From positions 210,150 through 274,149 of the forward strand of contig JACJVZ010000003.1 of NCBI GenBank assembly GCA_020637445.1: a DNA stretch of 64,000 nucleotides, given 5' to 3'. The notes under the pieces are model-generated. The model was not told where the DNA came from, made no database searches, and saw only the letters and a program-made list of their open reading frames with translations. This stretch comes from Calditrichota bacterium. Lineage in GTDB: Bacteria; Electryoneota; RPQS01. Shown piece by piece: positions 19,984-62,222 of this stretch. Position 1 is the stretch's first letter. The number at the start of each line of letters is the position of its first letter. A program made the translations under genes and the position numbers.

Positions 19984-20026
19984 ATTCCGGCGGGGAACCG
20001 CTGCGCTAAATCCCCGCTCGGCGAAT
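19984..20026 (+). repeat. Conserved motif family 2, copy A
   Basis: gattccggcggggaaccgctgcgctaaatccccgctcggcgaa; 6-bp stem cgggga/tccccg around the conserved loop accgctgcgct. Confidence 0.6.
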
Positions 20027-20044
20027 TTGAACAAATTGCAACCT

Positions 20045-51597: not shown

Positions 51598-54384
51598 ATG
51601 AGAAACTTAGGCAAGGCTTTGTTGATGACGTTGATCGTCTTGAGCTTGAACGCGGGTTCGGCTTGGGCGAATTTCACGCTGACGATTCTGCACAACAATG
51701 ACGGCGAATCGAAGCTGTCGACACTTGGAACGACGCAGCCTGATTACGCCGGCGCTGCCCGCTTTGTAACGAAGGTCAACGACCTCAAGACTTGGGCAAA
51801 CACGAACACGGACGGTTTTGTAATGCTGTCCTCGGGCGACAACTTTTTTGCGGGTGCTCAGTACAACGCGGGTGTGAACAACGGCGTGTACTATGACGCT
51901 CTGGTGTTGGACAAGATTGGCTACAGCGCACTGGCGTTCGGTAACCACGATTTCGATTTCGGCTGCAACACGCTTGCCGCATTCATGGATGACTATTCGA
52001 CGCTGCCCTATCCTCTGTATGTCATCTGCAACATGGATTTCTCGGCTGAGCCCGCGATGCAGGCTCAGGTGAACGCGGGCCGCATTGTTCCGAGCACGAT
52101 TTTGAACGTGAACGGTACGTTGGTCGGCGTGGTTGGCGCGATTTATCCGGATTTGGCTTCAATTTCCAGCCCCGGTAACGCCGTGGTGGATCCAAACCTT
52201 GCAGCCGCGGTTCAGGCTCAAGTGGATGCCATGGTTTTGAACGGCGCGAATATTATCATCATGATTTCGCACCTTCAGGACACGGCCAACGAAGAAGCTC
52301 TGGTTGCTCAGCTTCAGGGTGTGGACGTTGTGATCGCCGGCGGCGCGGACGAGTTCCTTGCCAACGCGGGCATCTCGCCTGTGTACCCCGGTGACGTTGT
52401 GAACCCGGTTCGCACCTATCCGTTGGTTCGTCAGGACTTGAACGGTGACGACGTGCTGGTAGTTACGACGACGGGCGAATATAAGTATGTTGGCCGTTTA
52501 GTGGTTGAGTTTGACAATAACGGCGACGCGATTGCCGTGGATCCGATTTCGAATCCGGTTTGTGTGTTGGATGCTTCGATTGACGCGGTGAACGGTGTGA
52601 CGGCGGACCCGGCTTGTGTGGCCGCAGTAATCAACCCGGTTGAAACCTACATCAACAATCTGGCCACGCACGTGATTGCGACGACCGACGTTCCGCTGAA
52701 CGGCACGCGTCCGTTGATCCGCCAGGTTGAGACGAACCAGGGCGACATTTTCGCCGATGCCATGCTGTGGGAAGGCCAGCGCAGAGCCGCATCGTTTGGC
52801 GTTTGCGTTCCTAACGTCGCGTTCCAGAACGGCGGTGGTATGCGTAAGAACGACGGTGAAATCCCCGTGGGCAACGTGTCGGAATTGAACACCTACGAAA
52901 TCGCGGCGTTTGACAACCAGGTTTCGATTACGCCGAACATTCCGGTTCAGCAGTTCAAGGAAATGCTGGAAGCGGCTGTTCGCCTTTCGCCCTCGCAGAA
53001 CGGCGGCTTTTTGCAGGTTGCGGGTTTCAAGTACACGTACGACAACACCCGTCAAGCTCAAGTTTTGGACGGCAGCTTGAACGTGGTGACTCCGGGCGAG
53101 CGCGTGCGCGACGTCGTGCTGAATGACGGAACGGTAATCGTCAGCTGCGGCGAAGTCGTCTCGGGCGCACCAGACCTCTGCATCGCGACGAACAACTTCA
53201 CGGCCGGTCAGAGCGGCGACAATATTCCGTTCCGCGGCGCTCCGCTGACGTTGATTGGTGTGACCTATCAGCAGGCTCTGTACAACTACATCGTTGAAGC
53301 GACCGGCTTGAACGGCGTGATCACGGGTGCTCAGTATCCTGTGACGCCGGGACAGTACCGTATCGTCGAGCGCACGTTCACGCAGACGTTCACGAACAAT
53401 AACACGGCTGCGATCTTCACGGCGACGGCAACGACGGACGCGATGACAAACTTGAGCAGCGGATTCAGCGTGAACTTCTACCCGTCGAATGCGCCGACTT
53501 CGATGACGGGCAGCTTCTCGCGCGTTCGTCCGGCTTTGTCGGATATCGATTACAACCTGCCCGAAGCGTTTGCGGTGGGTCGTTACTTCAACTTCACGAC
53601 GGAGAACGACGGTTCGTCAAGCACGAACGCCGACCTTTACTTCAATGCCTGCGAAGTTCCGGCGGGCCTGTCGCTGAACAATCTCGTAGCGGTGCGCACG
53701 GAAGACGGCGGCGCAAACTGGTATACGGTTGCCCCGATTTCCGTTACGAGTATCGGCAACGGCATCTACAAAGCCGAGTTTGAGAATGTCGGCACTATCG
53801 AAGGTTTCTGGGGCTTGGGAGTTCGTGACCGCGTGCTGCCGGTTGAGCTGACGAGCTTTGACGCTGAAGCCATCAACGGCGAAGTTGCTTTGATGTGGAC
53901 GACAGCTTCGGAATCAGACGTCGCACGATTCGAACTTTCGCGCAACGGCGATAAGATTGCCGAGATCACGGCGCAGAACAACCCGACCGGCGCGACCTAC
54001 AGCTTCACCGACCGCGTCGAAGCGGGTTCATACACGTATGAACTTTCCGAAGTGTCGATGAACGGTGAGCACATCGTTTTGGGTACGACCTCAATTGAAC
54101 TTTCCGACGGCGCAGTCGCCAATGAGTACGAATTGGGCGAGGCCCATCCGAACCCGTTCAACCCGACAACCAGCATCGACTTCGTGATTGCCAATGCCGA
54201 AAACGTGAAGCTCGACGTCTTCAACCCGCTGGGTCAAGTTGTGGCCACGTTGGCCGACGGCCGGATGGAAGCCGGCAGCCACACGGTGCAGTTTGACGGC
54301 GCGAACCTGACGAGCGGTATTTACTTCTACCGTTTGGAAGCCGGTTCGTTCTCCGCGATGAAGAAGATGGTTCTGGTCAAGTAG
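51598..54384 (+). CDS. Secreted 5'-nucleotidase/metallophosphoesterase family protein with T9SS C-terminal sorting domain
   Basis: LTILHNNDGESKL and GNHDFDFG motifs; CTD EAHPNPFNPTTSIDF...GIYFYRLEAGSFSAMKKMVLVK. Confidence 0.85.
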   Translation: MRNLGKALLMTLIVLSLNAGSAWANFTLTILHNNDGESKLSTLGTTQPDYAGAARFVTKVNDLKTWANTNTDGFVMLSSGDNFFAGAQYNAGVNNGVYYDALVLDKIGYSALAFGNHDFDFGCNTLAAFMDDYSTLPYPLYVICNMDFSAEPAMQAQVNAGRIVPSTILNVNGTLVGVVGAIYPDLASISSPGNAVVDPNLAAAVQAQVDAMVLNGANIIIMISHLQDTANEEALVAQLQGVDVVIAGGADEFLANAGISPVYPGDVVNPVRTYPLVRQDLNGDDVLVVTTTGEYKYVGRLVVEFDNNGDAIAVDPISNPVCVLDASIDAVNGVTADPACVAAVINPVETYINNLATHVIATTDVPLNGTRPLIRQVETNQGDIFADAMLWEGQRRAASFGVCVPNVAFQNGGGMRKNDGEIPVGNVSELNTYEIAAFDNQVSITPNIPVQQFKEMLEAAVRLSPSQNGGFLQVAGFKYTYDNTRQAQVLDGSLNVVTPGERVRDVVLNDGTVIVSCGEVVSGAPDLCIATNNFTAGQSGDNIPFRGAPLTLIGVTYQQALYNYIVEATGLNGVITGAQYPVTPGQYRIVERTFTQTFTNNNTAAIFTATATTDAMTNLSSGFSVNFYPSNAPTSMTGSFSRVRPALSDIDYNLPEAFAVGRYFNFTTENDGSSSTNADLYFNACEVPAGLSLNNLVAVRTEDGGANWYTVAPISVTSIGNGIYKAEFENVGTIEGFWGLGVRDRVLPVELTSFDAEAINGEVALMWTTASESDVARFELSRNGDKIAEITAQNNPTGATYSFTDRVEAGSYTYELSEVSMNGEHIVLGTTSIELSDGAVANEYELGEAHPNPFNPTTSIDFVIANAENVKLDVFNPLGQVVATLADGRMEAGSHTVQFDGANLTSGIYFYRLEAGSFSAMKKMVLVK

Positions 54385-54448
54385 CCAGCCAGCATAGACG
54401 CTGGACTCAATGCGCTTCGCGGGCGCTTGGGTTTATTGAACAAGAAAA

Positions 54449-54481
54449 CGCCCCGACCGTTTGGCCGGGGCGTTTTTTGTT
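54449..54481. terminator. Bidirectional intrinsic terminator between the 5'-nucleotidase gene and the convergent ABC operon
   Basis: Stem cgccccgacc / ggccggggcg, preceded by aaaa and followed by ttttttg. Confidence 0.8.
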
Positions 54482-54486
54482 TGAGG

Positions 54487-54527
54487 ATTCCGACAGGGAA
54501 CCGCTGCGCTTGGTCCCTGCTCGGAGA
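54487..54527 (+). repeat. Conserved motif family 2, copy B
   Basis: gattccgacagggaaccgctgcgcttggtccctgctcggagag; 34 of 41 positions identical to copy A; stem caggga/tccctg differs from copy A by a compensatory pair. Confidence 0.6.
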
Positions 54528-54533
54528 GTTATG

Positions 54534-55868
54534 TTATCCCAACTCCGTTGCCAGTCTCTTTCTAAAAATGACAATTGCGATGCCGGTCATGATCGCGGCC
54601 ATACCGAGACAGACTCCGCATTCGAGCAGGATTCCGGAGATTCCTTGATTGCGCCAAAAGATGTCATTGAATCCGCGCATCGCCCAGTAGACGGGCGTAA
54701 CTTCACTTATTGCGCGAATAAACGGCGGGAGCATGAAGCTGGGAAACATCGCGCCGCCGATGGACGAGATGCTTAGGATCACTACGACTTGAATGCCGCT
54801 TGCTTGCTCTTCGGTGCCGGACAGCGCGGAGATAATCAATCCGACGCCGCTCATCACAATCGCGGTCACCACAATCATCAGAAGCAGCGCGGGCAAGTGA
54901 TCCCAAATCTGCAAGTCGAAAATCAACCAGCCATAAACCATCATCGCAAAAAGTTGAAAGCTGCCGAGCGTGACGGCATACAGAAGTTTCGAGAGCAGAA
55001 TATCGCCTCCGGTCGCACCCATCAACAAGAGTCTTTGCGCCGTGCCCGAGCGCATTTCGCGCAGCAGCGACGCGGCGATTGCACCGACGCCGAAGAGCAT
55101 GAACATCACGGCCGTGCCGGCGGTCGTATGTGACACGGCGGAATTGACGACTTGTTGACCGACGACTTGCGTGCGGGTGATTTGATTTACTTTGTCAAAA
55201 CTCTGCGCCATGTTGAAACCGCCGCTATCCGCGGCCGCGTTGTTCTCACCGAGCAGCATGTCTTCAGGCACGAGGTCCTTGAAGCTCATACCACTGTCGG
55301 GAAGTTCTACGCCGAAGTTTTTCTCAATCGCCGAAGCGAGATCCTTGTTGAACATCGACGTTGACATTGAGTCCAGCATGCCGGACATCATCGCCGACGG
55401 CATCAGCATTGGAAAGGTCTCGAACGAAGTCTTTTGCATCAGCCCGAGCAAAACTCCGGCAGTTATTGGATCACGAGTATCTTCGAGAATGTGCGCGCGG
55501 ATTTCACCGTCTTTAATGCCTTCGGTGAAATCCGAGGGAATCACCAAAGCAGCCGAGTAGGTTCCACCGTAAACAAGTTTTGCCGCGGCGGCACTGTCAT
55601 ACATGGAGCTGTCCTTAGGCGAACGGTCGATCATCTGCAGTTCTTCGAGTTTGTCGAGCGAAGAAATGAACCGCGCGCCCGCCGGGCCGAGGTCCTCGTT
55701 GACGGCAATCACTCTCAGCTCTTTCAGTCCTTCACTGCCTTGACCGCCGAACACAAATCCAAACACGACGATCATCACCATAGGCACAATAAAAGCAAGC
55801 CCGAGTGCGACGGGGTCCGCGAGAAAGATCGCGAGGTCTTTGCGGGCCAGATACCAGATTTTTTTCAT
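54534..55868 (-). CDS. ABC-2 family transporter permease with large extracytoplasmic loop
   Basis: 444 aa; N-terminal TM, ~200-aa soluble domain, C-terminal TM bundle; overlaps upstream ATPase gene by 4 nt. Confidence 0.8.
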   Translation of the reverse strand: MKKIWYLARKDLAIFLADPVALGLAFIVPMVMIVVFGFVFGGQGSEGLKELRVIAVNEDLGPAGARFISSLDKLEELQMIDRSPKDSSMYDSAAAAKLVYGGTYSAALVIPSDFTEGIKDGEIRAHILEDTRDPITAGVLLGLMQKTSFETFPMLMPSAMMSGMLDSMSTSMFNKDLASAIEKNFGVELPDSGMSFKDLVPEDMLLGENNAAADSGGFNMAQSFDKVNQITRTQVVGQQVVNSAVSHTTAGTAVMFMLFGVGAIAASLLREMRSGTAQRLLLMGATGGDILLSKLLYAVTLGSFQLFAMMVYGWLIFDLQIWDHLPALLLMIVVTAIVMSGVGLIISALSGTEEQASGIQVVVILSISSIGGAMFPSFMLPPFIRAISEVTPVYWAMRGFNDIFWRNQGISGILLECGVCLGMAAIMTGIAIVIFRKRLATELG

Positions 55869-56776
55869 GCGTCGCGCAGCTCCCGCCCCGTTAATTCAAG
55901 AAACAGCATTTCCAAATTTGGCGCCACGACTTCGACGCGCTGCGCACCTGTGAAGCCCGCGAGCGTTCCGAGGATATCGGGCAAACCGTCTTCACCTTGG
56001 GGAATGTAATCCACCCGCAAGCCGGAGAGCTTTCGTTCGACTCCGTTCAAACTCGGTGGAGTTTCATTTTCGCTGCGCAGAATAAGCCGGACGAACCGCG
56101 GAGTCTTGACGAGCTTGACCAACTCATTTAGCGAGCCGACTCCGAGCAACTTACCGTGATCGAGTATGGCGATGGTGCGGCAAAGTCGCTCCGCTTCTTC
56201 CATGTAGTGAGTCGTGTAGAGAATCGTCATGCCCGATTGATGCAGCGATTCGAGCAAATCGAAGATGCTCGCGCGCGACTGCGGATCGACTCCAACCGTC
56301 GGTTCATCGAGCAAAAGAATTTTAGGTTCGCTCAGTAGCGCGACGCCGAGGTTCAAACGCCGTTTCATGCCGCCGGAAAAAGTCTTGACTCGCGACTTTC
56401 TGCGATCGGAAAGCCCGACTTGTTCGAGTACGCGGTCAATCCGTTTGTCGAGCTCTTTTCCGGTCACTCCGCGAAGTTTGCCGAAGAGTTCGAGATTTTT
56501 TTGCGCGGAGAGCACATCATACAGAGCAATGTCTTGCGGAACGACGCCCATGGCATACGGAATTTGCCAACGCTCGAGTTTGCTGTCGAAAATTCGCAGT
56601 TCACCGCTGTCGGGCGCAACCAATCCGCAGAGCACGCGCATCAGGGTCGTCTTCCCCGCTCCGTTGGGCCCAAGCAAGCCAAAGAAATCACCTTTCGCAA
56701 CCGAGAACGAGACGTCATTCAGTGCGCGCACGTCGCCGAAGGACTTGCTGATACTCTTGATATCAAACGCACTCAC
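55865..56776 (-). CDS. ABC transporter ATP-binding protein
   Basis: Walker [10 protein letters not shown], signature FSGGMKRRL, Walker B ILLLDEP. Confidence 0.9.
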
Positions 56777-58218
56777 GATTTTTTCCCCAAAAGTCCACCG
56801 AGCAAGCCGCGAATGAGCGACCGTCCCGCTTGCGAAGCGGCGGCGCGCGCGGCAGATTTCATCACGGCAGTCATGACGTCCTCCGGTCCTTTCGCAGATT
56901 TCTTCTTTGCTTTGCTGACTTCTTCGGCTTTCTCGGAAGCAGCGGCCTGTTCCGCTTTTTGTTTTAGTTTTTCGTAAGCGGATTCACGGTCGACGCTTTG
57001 TTCGTAGACTCCCGCCACAATCGAACTTTGCATCGTAACGAGCCGCTCGTTGTCTTCAAGCGGCCCGATGCGCGAGAACGGCGGCAGGATGTAGGCGCGT
57101 TCAGCGGGTGCGGGCACGCCTTTTTCGTCGAGAAAACTCACCACAGCTTCACCGATTCCAAGTTCCGGAATTGCCTTTTCGAGATCCAGCCCGGGGTTGG
57201 CGCGAAACGTCTCGGCAGCCGCTTTCAATTTCTTTTGTTCGGCGGGCGTGAACGCACGGAGCGCGTGCTGCACACGATTTCCGAGCTGAGTGAGAACTTT
57301 TTCGGGCACGTCCATCGGATGCTGCGTGACAAAAAACACTCCGACACCTTTTGAACGAATGAGCCGCACGACCTGCTCGATCTTGTCAAGCAGTGCAGCG
57401 GGCGCGTCGTCGAACAGCAGATGTGCTTCGTCAAAGAAGAAGACGAGTTTGGGCTTTTCGGGATCGCCCACTTCGGGAAGCCGCTCGAAGAGTTCGGAGA
57501 GCATCCACAGCAGAAATGTCGCGTAGACTTTGGGAGCGCGCACGAGTTCTTCGGCATGGAGTATATTGATATATCCGTGACCGTTGGCGTCCGTCTGCAG
57601 CAAGTCCATCAAATCAAAGGCAGGTTCGCCGAAGAATTTGTCTCCGCCCTGCTCTTCAAGCGTCAAGAGCGCGCGCTGAATTGCGCCGACGCTTGCGGGT
57701 GAAACGTTACCATATTCTGTGGTGAGTTCCTTGCGAATCTCGCCGACGTGGGCCAGCATCGCCCGCAGGTCTTTCAAGTCGAGCAAGAGCAGACCTTCGT
57801 CATCGGCATAGCTGAAAATAATCTGCAGCACGCCGGCTTGGGTTTCATTGAGATTCAGGAGCCGCGACAGGAGCAGGGGTCCCATCTCGGATATCGTCGT
57901 GCGGATCGGATGTCCCTTTTTTCCGAACACGTCCCAGAAAATGGTAGAATTCCCGGAGAACTCGTGTTCTTTGATTCCCAGCAAGTCAAGCCGCTTTTGA
58001 AATCTCTCGGACATTTTACCTGCCGTGGCGACACCGGACAGATCGCCTTTGACATCGGCGGCGAAAACCGGGATTCCTGCACGGGACATGCGCTCGGCCA
58101 TGACCTGCAATGTGACGGTCTTGCCTGTTCCCGTCGCTCCGGTAACGAGACCGTGACGGTTAAGTCTTTTAGGAAGTACGGAGATTTCGACGGAGTCTTT
58201 GAGAGCTATGGGCAGCAT
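56773..58218 (-). CDS. DUF853 family P-loop NTPase (YjgR/HerA-like)
   Basis: N-terminus [24 protein letters not shown]...[11 protein letters not shown] as in YjgR-type DUF853; Walker B-like [12 protein letters not shown]; Lys/Ala-rich C-terminal tail. Confidence 0.75.
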
Positions 58219-58466
58219 AACGAAATTGAGTAGAGTTGAAGGTAGGTTGAGGGAATTCAGGAGATTGAGGTCAAACGCGAAGGAGGGCTCGCGTTTAATT
58301 TAGTCAGATTTTCCGTAGGAAGTCAAGATAACGTCTCAAACGCCTTTTGAACGATGTTAAGGAAGAGAGCGGTGTTCACATGGCCTCGCAGGGGAGAATC
58401 AGTCCGTAAGTTCAATGTTTACAAATTGCATCCCGTGGCTCAGATGCCTACCATATTAGGTTAACG

Positions 58467-59891
58467 GTGAATCAGAGGAGCGGAGTTTTGACGGACCAGA
58501 CGATTCAGTGGATGATCATTATCGCGTATGTCACCTTTATTTTTGTGAAGGGCGTGATGAAGAGCAAGAACATCCATTCGACGGATGACTACTTGGTCGC
58601 GGGCCGTAATGTTGGCTGGTGGCTTTTGTTTGCGACGATGGGTGCAACGGTAATTGGCGGCGGGTACTCGATCGGTGCGACCGCAAAGACATACGAGTAC
58701 GGAGTGCTGTGGGTACTGATCTCCATGGGCGGCTATCTGCACTTTATTTTTTCGGGGATGGTCGTCGCGCCGAAATTCCGGGAAGCTGAACTCTATACGG
58801 TCGCAGGCTACTTCAAATACCGGTTTGGCGAGCGTCCGCGATTTGTTGCGATGCTGCTCTCGCTGCTGTTTTCGGTATTCATCATCGCGGCCCAGATGGC
58901 AGCCTTTGGTTCAATCTTGGCGACCTTGATGCCAGGCGCGGCGGAAGGCGGTTTCGACGTGCGCTGGGCAATCTTGATCGGCGGGTTTATCGTCATCGTG
59001 TACAGCACAGCAGGCGGATTGTTGGCCGTGATATACACGGACGTCTATCAATTCGTGGTCTTGTTCATCGGATTTGCGGTGACGCTTGCGATGTGCGCGC
59101 CGGATTTGATTTCTTCATGGGGACACGTACAAGCCACCCTTCCCGACAAGTGGTTTTCTTTTGACGGCGGCAAGGGGATCAGCTTTTTAGTAACGACGTT
59201 CTTTGCATTTTTGCTGGGAGAGACGTTTGCGCCGGGGTATGCGACACGCTATTGCATCGGCCGCGACATCAAGCACACGCAACGCGGTATTGCCGGTGTG
59301 GGAATCGTACTGGCACTGACCTTTCCGCTGGTTTTGTTCTTCATCGCCTTGTACGGCAGGCTGCATTTCCCGAACATAGATTCACAGCTTGCACTTTCTT
59401 TGGTCATAAAGAATCTTCACAGCCCGTGGATCGCGGGACTAATCATCGCGGCTCTGCTGTCGGCGGTGATGTCGTCAGCGGACTCGGCTCTTAACTCGTG
59501 CACGGCGATTTTCGTCAAGGACGTTTTCGAAGACCAATTCAAGACGCAATTCAAAAGCGACAAGGAAACGTTGAAATGGGCGCGGCGTTTGACGATGGGC
59601 GTGGGAGTCGCGGCGACGCTTGTGGCATTCTTTTGGCCGGACATTATCGGGCTGCTGCTTTTCACTTACCACTTGTGGGCGCCGGGAATCATTCTTCCGG
59701 TCGTATACGGGACACTAACCAAGAAGAAGTCGCCGGCTCTGACAGAGGCCATTTTCTTGACGATGGTCCTTTCCGTAATCGTCACGTTGTTCTATCGCAA
59801 AACAAGTTACGCCGAAACTTTTGATCCTGCTGTCTTCGGCGTCATCGCAAGCATTGTGATTTTCGCGATTATAAGGTTATTCAAGAAATGA
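58467..59891 (+). CDS. Sodium:solute symporter family (SSF) transporter
   Basis: DDYLVAGRNVGWW...ATVIGGGYSIG motif; multiple TM helices; GTG start, alternative TTG at 58488 after AGGAG. Confidence 0.85.
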   Translation: MNQRSGVLTDQTIQWMIIIAYVTFIFVKGVMKSKNIHSTDDYLVAGRNVGWWLLFATMGATVIGGGYSIGATAKTYEYGVLWVLISMGGYLHFIFSGMVVAPKFREAELYTVAGYFKYRFGERPRFVAMLLSLLFSVFIIAAQMAAFGSILATLMPGAAEGGFDVRWAILIGGFIVIVYSTAGGLLAVIYTDVYQFVVLFIGFAVTLAMCAPDLISSWGHVQATLPDKWFSFDGGKGISFLVTTFFAFLLGETFAPGYATRYCIGRDIKHTQRGIAGVGIVLALTFPLVLFFIALYGRLHFPNIDSQLALSLVIKNLHSPWIAGLIIAALLSAVMSSADSALNSCTAIFVKDVFEDQFKTQFKSDKETLKWARRLTMGVGVAATLVAFFWPDIIGLLLFTYHLWAPGIILPVVYGTLTKKKSPALTEAIFLTMVLSVIVTLFYRKTSYAETFDPAVFGVIASIVIFAIIRLFKK

Positions 59892-61027
59892 ACACTATCA
59901 TTTCCACGGCCATCGCTCAGCGGCATGCGCTGCACCGGCTGGCGGAACTCTCCAATCAGGAGAAATTGACATCCGAATTCGTACAGGGGTTTGTGCAAGG
60001 CTGCAAGCCGCTGGCAATTCACGCGCATCTTGGCGGACATGGTTTGATCGCGGAATTCGGCATCAAAGATGCGCAGCCTGTTACTTTGTTTCGTGCGGAA
60101 CTCGACGCACTGCCGATTCCCGAAACGATCGATGCTCCGCACGCGTCGGACGCACCGTTCGTGAGTCACAAATGCGGTCACGACGGTCACATGGCGATTT
60201 TATGCGGCATCGCACAACATTTGCGTGACCATCCTCTCAAAAGGGGCCGCTTGGCTTTGCTCTTTCAACCGGCGGAAGAGACAGGAGACGGCTGTGCGAA
60301 AGTCATGAAGACGGCAGTCTTCAAGAAATTGAAACCGACGACTTGTTTTGCGCTGCATAACCTTCCGGGCTACGACGCAGGTCAAGTTGTCGTTCGCGAG
60401 AATCTCTTTGCCGCGGCGTCGCTCGGTCTAATCATTCGACTGCACGGCAGTACGTCACATGCTGCGGAACCGCACAAGGGCAACTCGCCGACGCGCGCTT
60501 TGGCAACACTGCTTGATCAACTTCCGTCCGTACCGCACTATCATGCGGGGCTGTTCGACTCCGCGCAAGTGACCGTTATCCACGCTCAACTGGGCAAAGA
60601 AGCATTTGGAACATCACCGGGCGACGCGGACATCATGCTGACCTTGCGGGCCGAATCGGACACTCTTTTAGACATTTTGCTTCAAACCTGCGTTCAATTT
60701 GCAAAGTCGATCGCGCTCCTTCATTCTCTCAAATGTTCCACGGACGTCACCGAGCGCTTTCCGGCCACCGTTAACGACGGTGCTTGCGTGGCCAGAGTGA
60801 CCAGCGCCGCTCAACGCTCCAATATACCATTGCTGGTCACTGAACGTCCTTTCGCTTGGTCGGAAGATTTCGGTCATATGTTAAAGAAATGTCCCGGAGC
60901 ACTTTTCGGCATCGGCGCAGGCAAGAAGCATCCGTCTCTGCATCATCCCGAATACGATTTCCCCGACGAGATCATCGAGCCCGCCCTTCGAATTTTCACC
61001 GAACTTCTTAAAGATGAACATTACTGA
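59888..61027 (+). CDS. M20-family amidohydrolase (M20D/aminoacylase-like)
   Basis: FRAELDALPI, HKCGHDGH and FQPAEETGDG metal-binding motifs; 4-nt overlap with symporter gene. Confidence 0.8.
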   Translation: MNTIISTAIAQRHALHRLAELSNQEKLTSEFVQGFVQGCKPLAIHAHLGGHGLIAEFGIKDAQPVTLFRAELDALPIPETIDAPHASDAPFVSHKCGHDGHMAILCGIAQHLRDHPLKRGRLALLFQPAEETGDGCAKVMKTAVFKKLKPTTCFALHNLPGYDAGQVVVRENLFAAASLGLIIRLHGSTSHAAEPHKGNSPTRALATLLDQLPSVPHYHAGLFDSAQVTVIHAQLGKEAFGTSPGDADIMLTLRAESDTLLDILLQTCVQFAKSIALLHSLKCSTDVTERFPATVNDGACVARVTSAAQRSNIPLLVTERPFAWSEDFGHMLKKCPGALFGIGAGKKHPSLHHPEYDFPDEIIEPALRIFTELLKDEHY

Positions 61028-62222
61028 AATTGAAGATACGACTCTCTCCGGACTATTCTCAAGTTCACGCATAGAGATATCGAAGTCCGCGCTGCAAAGC
61101 AATTTAAGTTTTTTGCGCAAAGTCATCGGCAAGAACGTCATCATTTGCTCGGTCGTCAAAGGCAACGCCTACGGTCACGGCATGGAGCAATTTGTGCCGC
61201 TTGCCGAGACTTGCGGCGTGCGCTGGTTCGCCGTTTATTCCGCGGACGAAGCCTTACGAGTCTTCAACAGCAGCACGGCGGGATCGTCGATCATGATCAT
61301 GGGCGGTATGTCGCGGGACCAAGTCGAGTGGGCTATCGAACACGGAATTACGTTCTACGTGTTCGATCTCAATGAACTGACTTTCGCAATCGAATCTGCC
61401 CGAAAGGTCGGCAAGCGGGCACAAGTTCATCTCGAAATTGAAACGGGCATGAACCGCTTGGGTTTTGGAGAAACCGCGCTTGAACAAGCGGCGGAACTGA
61501 TAAAATACAACAACGAGCTTGTCGACGTGGTCGGAGTATGCACGCACTTTGCGGGAGCCGAAAGCGTCGCCAATCACTTGCGCATTCAGCACCAGATTCA
61601 GACTTTTGAAACGCGGTTGGAGTGGTTGTTCGGACTGGGAATTGAACCTCGATTGCGGCACGCGGCAAGTTCGGCGGCGACTTTCAGCTATCCGTATACG
61701 CGGTACGACATGGTGCGGGTTGGTATTGCACAATACGGATTTTGGCCAAGCATAGAGACTCGAATGCAGTATGTCCTTCAGCAGCAAGCCAACGGCGGCA
61801 AGCAGCTTGCGCGCGATCCTCTGACACGCGTGCTGCGCTGGAAATCACATGTCATAAATGTGAAAGACGTGCGAGCAGGCGAGTTCATCGGTTACGGCAC
61901 GTCGTTCCTGACTACCCGGCCGTCGCGAGTTGCGGCGGTTCCGGTCGGATACTACCACGGATTCAATCGCAATCTAAGCAACGTCGGGCACGTCTTGGTG
62001 CGCGGCAAACGCGTTCCCGTCGCCGGAGTCGTGAACATGAATCTGATGCTCGTGGACGTGACGGACGTACGCCACGTGGAAAACGGCGACGAGGTTGTGT
62101 TGATCGGAAAGCAAGGCCGCAGCGAAATCACGGTGGGCGCATTCAGTGATTTGACAAAGCTCCTGAACTACGAAGCTCTCGTCAGACTGTCGCCGGATAT
62201 CGCGCGAACGGTCGTGCCGTAA
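61014..62222 (+). CDS. alr: Alanine racemase
   Basis: PLP-binding SVVKGNAYGHG motif; C-terminal beta domain; 14-nt overlap with upstream gene. Confidence 0.9.
   Translation: MNITEIEDTTLSGLFSSSRIEISKSALQSNLSFLRKVIGKNVIICSVVKGNAYGHGMEQFVPLAETCGVRWFAVYSADEALRVFNSSTAGSSIMIMGGMSRDQVEWAIEHGITFYVFDLNELTFAIESARKVGKRAQVHLEIETGMNRLGFGETALEQAAELIKYNNELVDVVGVCTHFAGAESVANHLRIQHQIQTFETRLEWLFGLGIEPRLRHAASSAATFSYPYTRYDMVRVGIAQYGFWPSIETRMQYVLQQQANGGKQLARDPLTRVLRWKSHVINVKDVRAGEFIGYGTSFLTTRPSRVAAVPVGYYHGFNRNLSNVGHVLVRGKRVPVAGVVNMNLMLVDVTDVRHVENGDEVVLIGKQGRSEITVGAFSDLTKLLNYEALVRLSPDIARTVVP

Follow-up and report, generated by a model that had tools for sequence, protein, structure and literature searches.

A 64,000-nt stretch of the genome of a Calditrichota bacterium (assembly GCA_020637445.1, contig JACJVZ010000003.1, positions 210,150 to 274,149; hereafter the window) carries on its minus strand a gene for a DUF853/YjgR-type P-loop ATPase that is followed by the two overlapping genes of an ATP-binding cassette (ABC) exporter of the ABC-2 type. 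Does this close arrangement mean that the ATPase and the exporter work together, or do two independent units share an operon? DUF853/YjgR is among the most conserved families of bacterial ATPases without a function, and any reproducible partner would be valuable. Our literature search on the function of YjgR/DUF853 found no functional study, the sole functional datum being that E. coli YjgR binds ATP in a proteomics experiment (bioRxiv 10.1101/2025.04.28.650974). We consider it likely that the locus is a lineage-specific operon in which an independent ABC-2 pair stands behind a conserved DUF853 gene in one Calditrichota-like clade, with the three genes probably being co-transcribed without working together. 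The ABC-2 neighbour is not a reproducible DUF853 partner and represents a local arrangement in one clade. The main value of the analysis is a negative result, i.e., that gene context will not reveal the role of DUF853 and that structure (PDB 11kk) and genetics must answer this question.

The three genes and their products

The unit comprises three open reading frames (ORFs), whose positions and identities agree with the initial annotation of the window and are confirmed by Pfam matches:

56773..58218, minus strand: DUF853/YjgR-type P-loop ATPase, 481 aa, first gene of the unit (ORF and PF05872)
55865..56776, minus strand: ABC transporter ATPase of the DrrA/NatA/ABCA-like group of nucleotide-binding domains (NBDs), 303 aa, GTG start (PF00005)
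54534..55868, minus strand: ABC-2 permease, 444 aa (PF12698 and PF01061, hydropathy)

The 481-aa protein matches PF05872 (HerA_C, formerly DUF853) with 725 bits against a cut-off of 22, covering positions 10-500 of the 502 in the profile. Its Walker A (GATGTGKT, residues 27-34) and Walker B (FFFDEAH, residues 260-266) motifs are invariant in an alignment of 17 DUF853 sequences (columns G27-T34 and F260-H266), and residues 4-479 align to residues 10-500 of PDB 11kk, described as "HerA like helicase YjgR" (E 3.5e-177), a crystal structure with six chains of a single sequence. Judged by these matches and by its differences from HerA (see below), the protein is a YjgR-family member of the FtsK/HerA superfamily and not HerA. 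A hydropathy scan of the protein gave no transmembrane (TM) or other hydrophobic segment. At the C-terminus, the alignment has a variable K/E/A-rich low-complexity linker and then a conserved tail, KSAARAxGSQxGRxLIRGxLGxLLGG. Linker and tail span residues ~437-481 (56773-56910 of the window) and are found family-wide, including in E. coli YjgR (PDB 11kk). The idea that this tail forms a strongly amphipathic, membrane-targeting helix was dropped because its hydrophobic moment lies outside the top segments of the protein. The tail is also not predicted as a TM segment.

The second protein matches PF00005 (ABC_tran) with 116 bits. Its score of 253 bits against the drrA subfamily model TIGR01188 falls under the cut-off of 312, which leaves the subfamily unassigned, and its best solved relatives are the NBDs of ABCA3, ABCA4 and ABCA1 (E 1e-72 to 1e-77), 4yer over its full length and NosF. 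The permease matches PF12698 (ABC2_membrane_3) with 116 bits and PF01061 with 74 bits, and its hydropathy profile places TM1 at residues 22-40 and a TM cluster at 251-435. Between them lies a loop of ~200 aa without hydrophobic segment, in agreement with the large loop proposed earlier. ATPase and PF12698 permease are thus classified from their domain content as a standard two-gene ABC-2 (type V) exporter, which by analogy would probably consist of two NBDs and two permeases, each with six TM segments and a large loop facing outward. The pair reaches the cut-off of no equivalog among NCBIfam-type models, so that no substrate can be assigned.

The linkage of DUF853 to the exporter is confined to one shallow clade

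We surveyed DUF853 neighbourhoods in two independent samples. The first came from a profile-based scan with one genome per species and comprised 80 DUF853 loci from Acidobacteriota, Beta-, Gamma- and Alphaproteobacteria, Bacteroidota, Spirochaetota, Clostridia, Chloroflexota, Deinococcota, Planctomycetota and others, whose flanks of up to 6 kb were searched by tblastn with the ABC ATPase and permease of the window. The second consisted of metagenome contigs with 80 DUF853 matches listed at 54-64% identity, 59 of which reach at least 1 kb downstream. ABC ATPase and permease were found downstream of DUF853 at a single one of the 80 species-genome loci (L048, 85% DUF853 identity), and this locus belongs to the window's own clade. 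The permease family was absent from the flanks of the 79 other species-genome loci, and tblastn placed it beside DUF853 in 0/80 of the metagenome loci listed. With one additional KSB1 locus, these 79 species genomes and 80 metagenome contigs amount to 160 loci outside the close clade, none of which has DUF853 linked to the permease. An exporter is therefore indeed an unusual context for DUF853, as the initial annotation had pointed out, and the recurrent linkage in other genomes that it had proposed to look for ends at the border of one shallow clade.

Within this clade, the trio is present at four levels, i.e., in the window's species and in relatives with 93%, 85% (L048) and 81% (L089) DUF853 identity. 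An identical DUF853 protein with the same neighbours is encoded on contig JAGQRY010000015.1 of GCA_020439805.1, and the nearest named relatives are annotated as Calditrichaeota/Calditrichota. In addition, the match lists for DUF853 and for the permease share the contig sizes 3359242, 1932077, 857448, 279604, 82553, 17659 and 8025, which fits a co-location of both genes in further clade members. In the 81% relative (GCA_016703065.1; L089:7454-8361), gene calling splits the ABC ATPase into two ORFs (181 and 121 aa), reflecting either a frameshift (and hence a pseudogene) or an assembly error.

An ABC ATPase gene of any kind lies within the 5-6 kb flanks of ~10 of the 160 unrelated DUF853 loci. 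This is the background for a common gene class, and direct adjacency in one lineage is therefore expected by chance. An ABC-F-like ATPase gene stands directly downstream of DUF853 and on the same strand at L076:7546-9405 (Rhizobium aethiopicum) and at L109:6913-8328; the product at L076 has 619 aa, two ABC_tran domains and no membrane domain.

DUF853 proteins are ~60-65% identical across phyla, and a census in which all ORFs within 2.5 kb of DUF853 were clustered found no conserved same-operon partner across 162 loci. The widely recurrent real neighbours are yebC (58/162 loci), ruvC, purD and hemF, which all lie divergently or on the opposite strand in Betaproteobacteria-like loci, and the only frequent same-strand downstream cluster is a promiscuous short-chain dehydrogenase family (14/162 loci). 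DUF853 is in effect neighbour-less, and the premise that HerA-like ATPases usually come with a partner, from which the interest in this locus had started, does not extend to YjgR/DUF853 in this survey.

Several minor observations belong to this census. The divergent DUF853-yebC pair, often with ruvC, purD and hemF beyond it, occurs among L016-L086 and in many of L099-L178 (e.g., L017:1551-2441 and L040:4717-5934), and the named loci are all from Beta- or unclassified Proteobacteria; this neighbourhood is class-level housekeeping synteny beside the Holliday-junction resolvase operon. A large same-strand cluster without Pfam match ("cluster 0") is very probably noise from antisense ORFs over yebC, purD and hemF in high-GC genomes and was disregarded. 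In E. coli K-12 (L181, NC_000913.3 4486218-4490063), yjgR is convergent with lptF-lptG, the permease genes of the lipopolysaccharide exporter, at a distance of 160 bp. LptF/G are absent from every other DUF853 locus fetched, including those of the Enterobacterales Serratia and Buttiauxella, and we therefore rejected this adjacency as a sign of a general link to envelope ABC exporters.

Both units exist without each other in related lineages

The nearest outgroup locus (P0016/L088, 75% DUF853 identity) shares its upstream genes with the 81% relative in the same order and orientation. They encode a Por_Secre_tail protein (56% identity over 1135 aa) and a WG-repeat protein (53% identity). Downstream of DUF853, no ABC sequence was found at this locus, and an unrelated 142-aa ORF follows instead. 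Because the upstream synteny is shared, the linked DUF853 gene is an ordinary orthologue of the unlinked one and not a specialised paralogue. By the same comparison, the ABC pair was gained or lost at this site between the 75% and 81% nodes.

The exporter has a history of its own. Its permease belongs to a narrow orthogroup of 61 proteins with at least 50% identity, after which identity drops to 30% or less, and the few members carrying a name are Calditrichota/KSB1-like. At every orthologous locus that we examined, with permease identities as low as 51%, the genes for the NBD and the transmembrane domain (TMD) subunits stand side by side. The pair is present without DUF853 at L179 (63% permease identity), L093 and L094 (58%), L095 and L096 (53%; L095 being from KSB1 assembly GCA_016214895.1) and L097 (51%). 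At L098 and L180 (61-62%), the contigs end inside the ATPase gene so that the upstream content is beyond reach. L095 and L097 have hrcA-grpE-dnaJ upstream, and there the gene that the pair overlaps encodes an unrelated PF03602 methyltransferase. The KSB1 assembly GCA_016214895.1 carries both units on different contigs, with DUF853 on JACRMR010000020, where it adjoins acetyltransferase and LemA genes, and the ABC pair on JACRMR010000012. The proteins have the same lengths whether they are linked or unlinked (NBD 297-308 aa, permease 444-449 aa, DUF853 480-483 aa), and a comparison of the proteins of linked and unlinked loci detected no change in domain content and no docking domain that would come with linkage. 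A functional coupling of DUF853 to the exporter, as the initial annotation had envisaged, thus finds no support, since the ABC pair is absent at the outgroup locus and its orthologues occur without DUF853.

LemA-family genes came up twice in these comparisons, beside the unlinked KSB1 DUF853 gene (L090:7578-8129) and, together with an M48 peptidase gene, beside an orthologue of the ABC pair whose upstream region is cut by the contig end (L098:2249-3750). Their presence near both DUF853 and ABC-pair loci is probably a coincidence.

Gene junctions and operon boundaries

The following features lie between and around the three genes:

56773..56776, minus strand: GTGA junction, DUF853 stop TGA over the GTG start of the ABC ATPase (4-nt overlap in the sequence)
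55865..55868, minus strand: ATGA junction, ABC ATPase stop over the permease start (4-nt overlap in the sequence)
~54439..54481, both strands: hairpin of a bidirectional intrinsic terminator, between the converging permease and 5'-nucleotidase genes (folding energy)
58219..58466, between divergent genes: intergenic region of 248 nt, 5' of DUF853 and toward the SSF transporter gene

Both junctions had been described as ATGA-type overlaps of 4 nt. The length is right for both, but the motif is right only for the ABC ATPase and permease, and the junction of DUF853 with the ABC ATPase is GTGA. The latter varies among relatives: the 93% relative has a 4-nt overlap, L048 starts the ABC ATPase with ATG after a 2-nt spacer, and the spacer in L089 measures 1 nt. 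The 4-nt overlap of ATPase and permease is kept in 6/6 of the more distant orthologous pairs (L093, L095, L097, L098, L179 and L180). Overlaps of exactly 4 nt occur in five of the 39 same-strand neighbour pairs of the window (with longest-ORF starts), and the SSF transporter/M20 peptidase pair beside the unit also overlaps in this way (59888-59891). Because other pairs in the window share such overlaps and the ABC pair elsewhere overlaps the unrelated methyltransferase gene, the overlaps are real but not distinctive, and they indicate compact operons rather than functional partnership. Gene calls differ slightly at the first junction. The NCBI annotation of the source contig (L001:9440-10354) begins the ABC ATPase at an ATC one codon before the GTG, which gives 304 aa and a 7-nt overlap, and the Logan gene calls start it at the GTG (window position 56776) with 303 aa.

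At the downstream end, the hairpin at ~54439-54481 has a folding energy of -29.6 kcal/mol on the minus strand (z -7.2) and of -27.6 kcal/mol on the plus strand (z -4.5), with a U-run behind the stem in either direction. Because of the strong fold and the U-run on each strand, this element can fairly be read as a bidirectional intrinsic terminator, as had been proposed for the end of the operon, although a simple consensus scan for terminators did not list it. At the other end, the divergent intergenic region at 58219-58466 presumably carries the operon promoter. It contains one weak sigma-70-like match on the minus strand (58326-58297, TTGACT-18-TAAATT, 9/12), which is a consensus match only. 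An Rfam scan of the whole window returned zero family matches, and the composition is unremarkable across the region.

Next to the terminator lies one copy of a two-copy motif of ~45 nt on the plus strand (19985-20030 and 54488-54533; core GGGAACCGCTGCGCT), which the initial annotation had correctly noted as copy B of its motif family 2. Each copy stands directly 3' of a terminator-like hairpin; copy B separates the permease stop from the bidirectional terminator, and copy A lies just 5' of a gene starting at 20027. A 22-mer of the motif has two matches at up to 3 mismatches in the window versus 0 expected, and the 93% relative has no exact copy of the 14-mer.

Weighing a shared operon against a shared function

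The lineage-specific operon that we favour would combine two independent units. The first is the organism's YjgR/DUF853 orthologue, a soluble P-loop ATPase that almost every lineage encodes without any conserved partner, and the second is an ordinary two-gene ABC-2 (type V) exporter. In the ancestor of the narrow clade, the ABC pair would have landed directly behind the DUF853 gene, and the three genes would since then probably have been transcribed together from a promoter 5' of DUF853 to the shared bidirectional terminator. The start/stop overlaps would allow re-initiation, and the trio may perhaps be translationally coupled. Several points weigh against this reading. Within the clade, the trio has been retained despite changes on both flanks, with the upstream side being occupied by the SSF-M20-racemase block in the window, by ResB in the 93% and 85% relatives and by a WG-repeat gene in the 81% relative, and the spacing of DUF853 and the ABC ATPase remains at -4 to +2 nt throughout. 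Selection to hold the three genes together could explain the retained trio and its tight spacing as well, and what chiefly still speaks for a functional link is the survival of the trio through flank rearrangement. The lack of a known DUF853 function may leave room for a lineage-specific role with a membrane exporter. Finally, the sample of 160 loci is taxonomically skewed with many Betaproteobacteria, and the close clade was sampled from a handful of genomes.

These same two observations, the persistence of tight junctions and of the trio itself, are what a three-component system would predict, in which the YjgR-type ring would be an accessory of the ABC-2 exporter, acting as its motor or regulator, e.g., by feeding or unfolding a polymeric substrate, and the operon would match expression of the components. 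ATPases of the FtsK/HerA superfamily are pumping motors, and the conserved basic, Gly-rich C-terminal tail on its flexible linker is a potential docking element. However, this tail is a family-wide trait shared with E. coli YjgR instead of being specific to the linked clade and is not among the strongest amphipathic segments. Moreover, neither length nor domains change on linkage, the other orthologues of the ABC pair form two-gene units of their own, the nearest outgroup has no such pair at the corresponding locus, and recurrence outside the clade is 0/160. Taken together, this makes a three-component system unlikely. Co-option of the YjgR/DUF853 ring as a cytoplasmic accessory of the exporter in this clade is in our judgment decidedly improbable; if true, it would offer the first clue to the function of a family that is very widespread and ~60% identical across phyla. 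A co-regulation without physical interaction, in which all three genes answer to a shared condition such as envelope or membrane stress and linkage is selected for timing only, would agree with the tight junctions, the lack of any promoter or terminator between the genes and the persistence of the trio through flank rearrangements. We nevertheless regard it as quite unlikely given that the linkage is absent in sister lineages carrying both units. An anti-phage defence or mobile-element module, with a HerA-like ATPase and effectors as in Sir2-HerA or DUF4297-HerA, comes to mind since HerA-type ATPases are frequent in defence systems according to two reports (PMC11514289, PMC11291478), and PADLOC models do match the ATPase weakly (mad8 with 59 bits, HerA models with up to 41 bits). 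These matches represent generic P-loop similarity when set against the 725 bits to PF05872, and the permease has no PADLOC match at all. In addition, ~60-65% identity across phyla and a conserved position divergent from yebC in Betaproteobacteria-like loci are the opposite of patchy, fast-evolving defence genes, the adjacent genes encode neither a nuclease nor Sir2 or a comparable effector, and the composition is unremarkable. We therefore rejected this explanation as extremely improbable. The lineage-specific operon of two independent units remains the reading that we prefer.

Comparison with known systems

The DUF853 protein of the window resembles E. coli YjgR in all respects that we compared at the protein level, with a full-length alignment, the same Walker A and B motifs, the linker and conserved tail, no N-terminal extension and no TM segment. 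The two differ in genomic context only, as E. coli yjgR looks monocistronic and is convergent with lptG, whereas the window gene heads a three-gene unit. With HerA of the HerA-NurA system or of defence systems (Sir2-HerA, DUF4297-HerA), the protein shares the RecA-like P-loop core of the FtsK/HerA superfamily, but this likeness is local and limited to Walker B and the following helices (residues ~245-406). Its Walker A motif already starts at residue 27, leaving no room for an N-terminal HAS-barrel, and the scores against HerA models are far below their cut-offs (NF040937, 38.7 bits vs 800; NF040819, 29.1 bits vs 970). Furthermore, no nuclease or NADase partner such as NurA, Sir2 or DUF4297 is present, the neighbours being the ABC ATPase, the ABC-2 permease and the divergent SSF transporter.

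The exporter is most similar to two-gene ABC-2 systems of the DrrAB/NatAB/YbhFSR type (type V, ABCA/ABCG-like), in its NBD, which is close to ABCA NBDs and the drrA subfamily, in its PF12698/PF01061 permease with TM1, large outward loop and TM bundle, and in the 4-nt overlap of the NBD and TMD genes in every orthologue. Its own traits are the scores below all equivalog cut-offs, the narrow orthogroup and the DUF853 gene in front of it in this clade alone.

Flanking genes

The gene that converges on the operon (51598-54384, plus strand) encodes a 928-aa 5'-nucleotidase-like protein with a Por_Secre_tail domain of the type IX secretion system. It is found in the same position in most clade members and is missing in L048, where a 411-aa gene directly follows the permease. 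On the other side, the genes for an SSF transporter, an M20 peptidase and an alanine racemase (58467-62222, plus strand) form a block with overlaps of 4 and 14 nt. Compared with the 93% and 85% relatives, this block is inserted; in them, ResB, a gene of cytochrome-c assembly, stands directly in front of DUF853.

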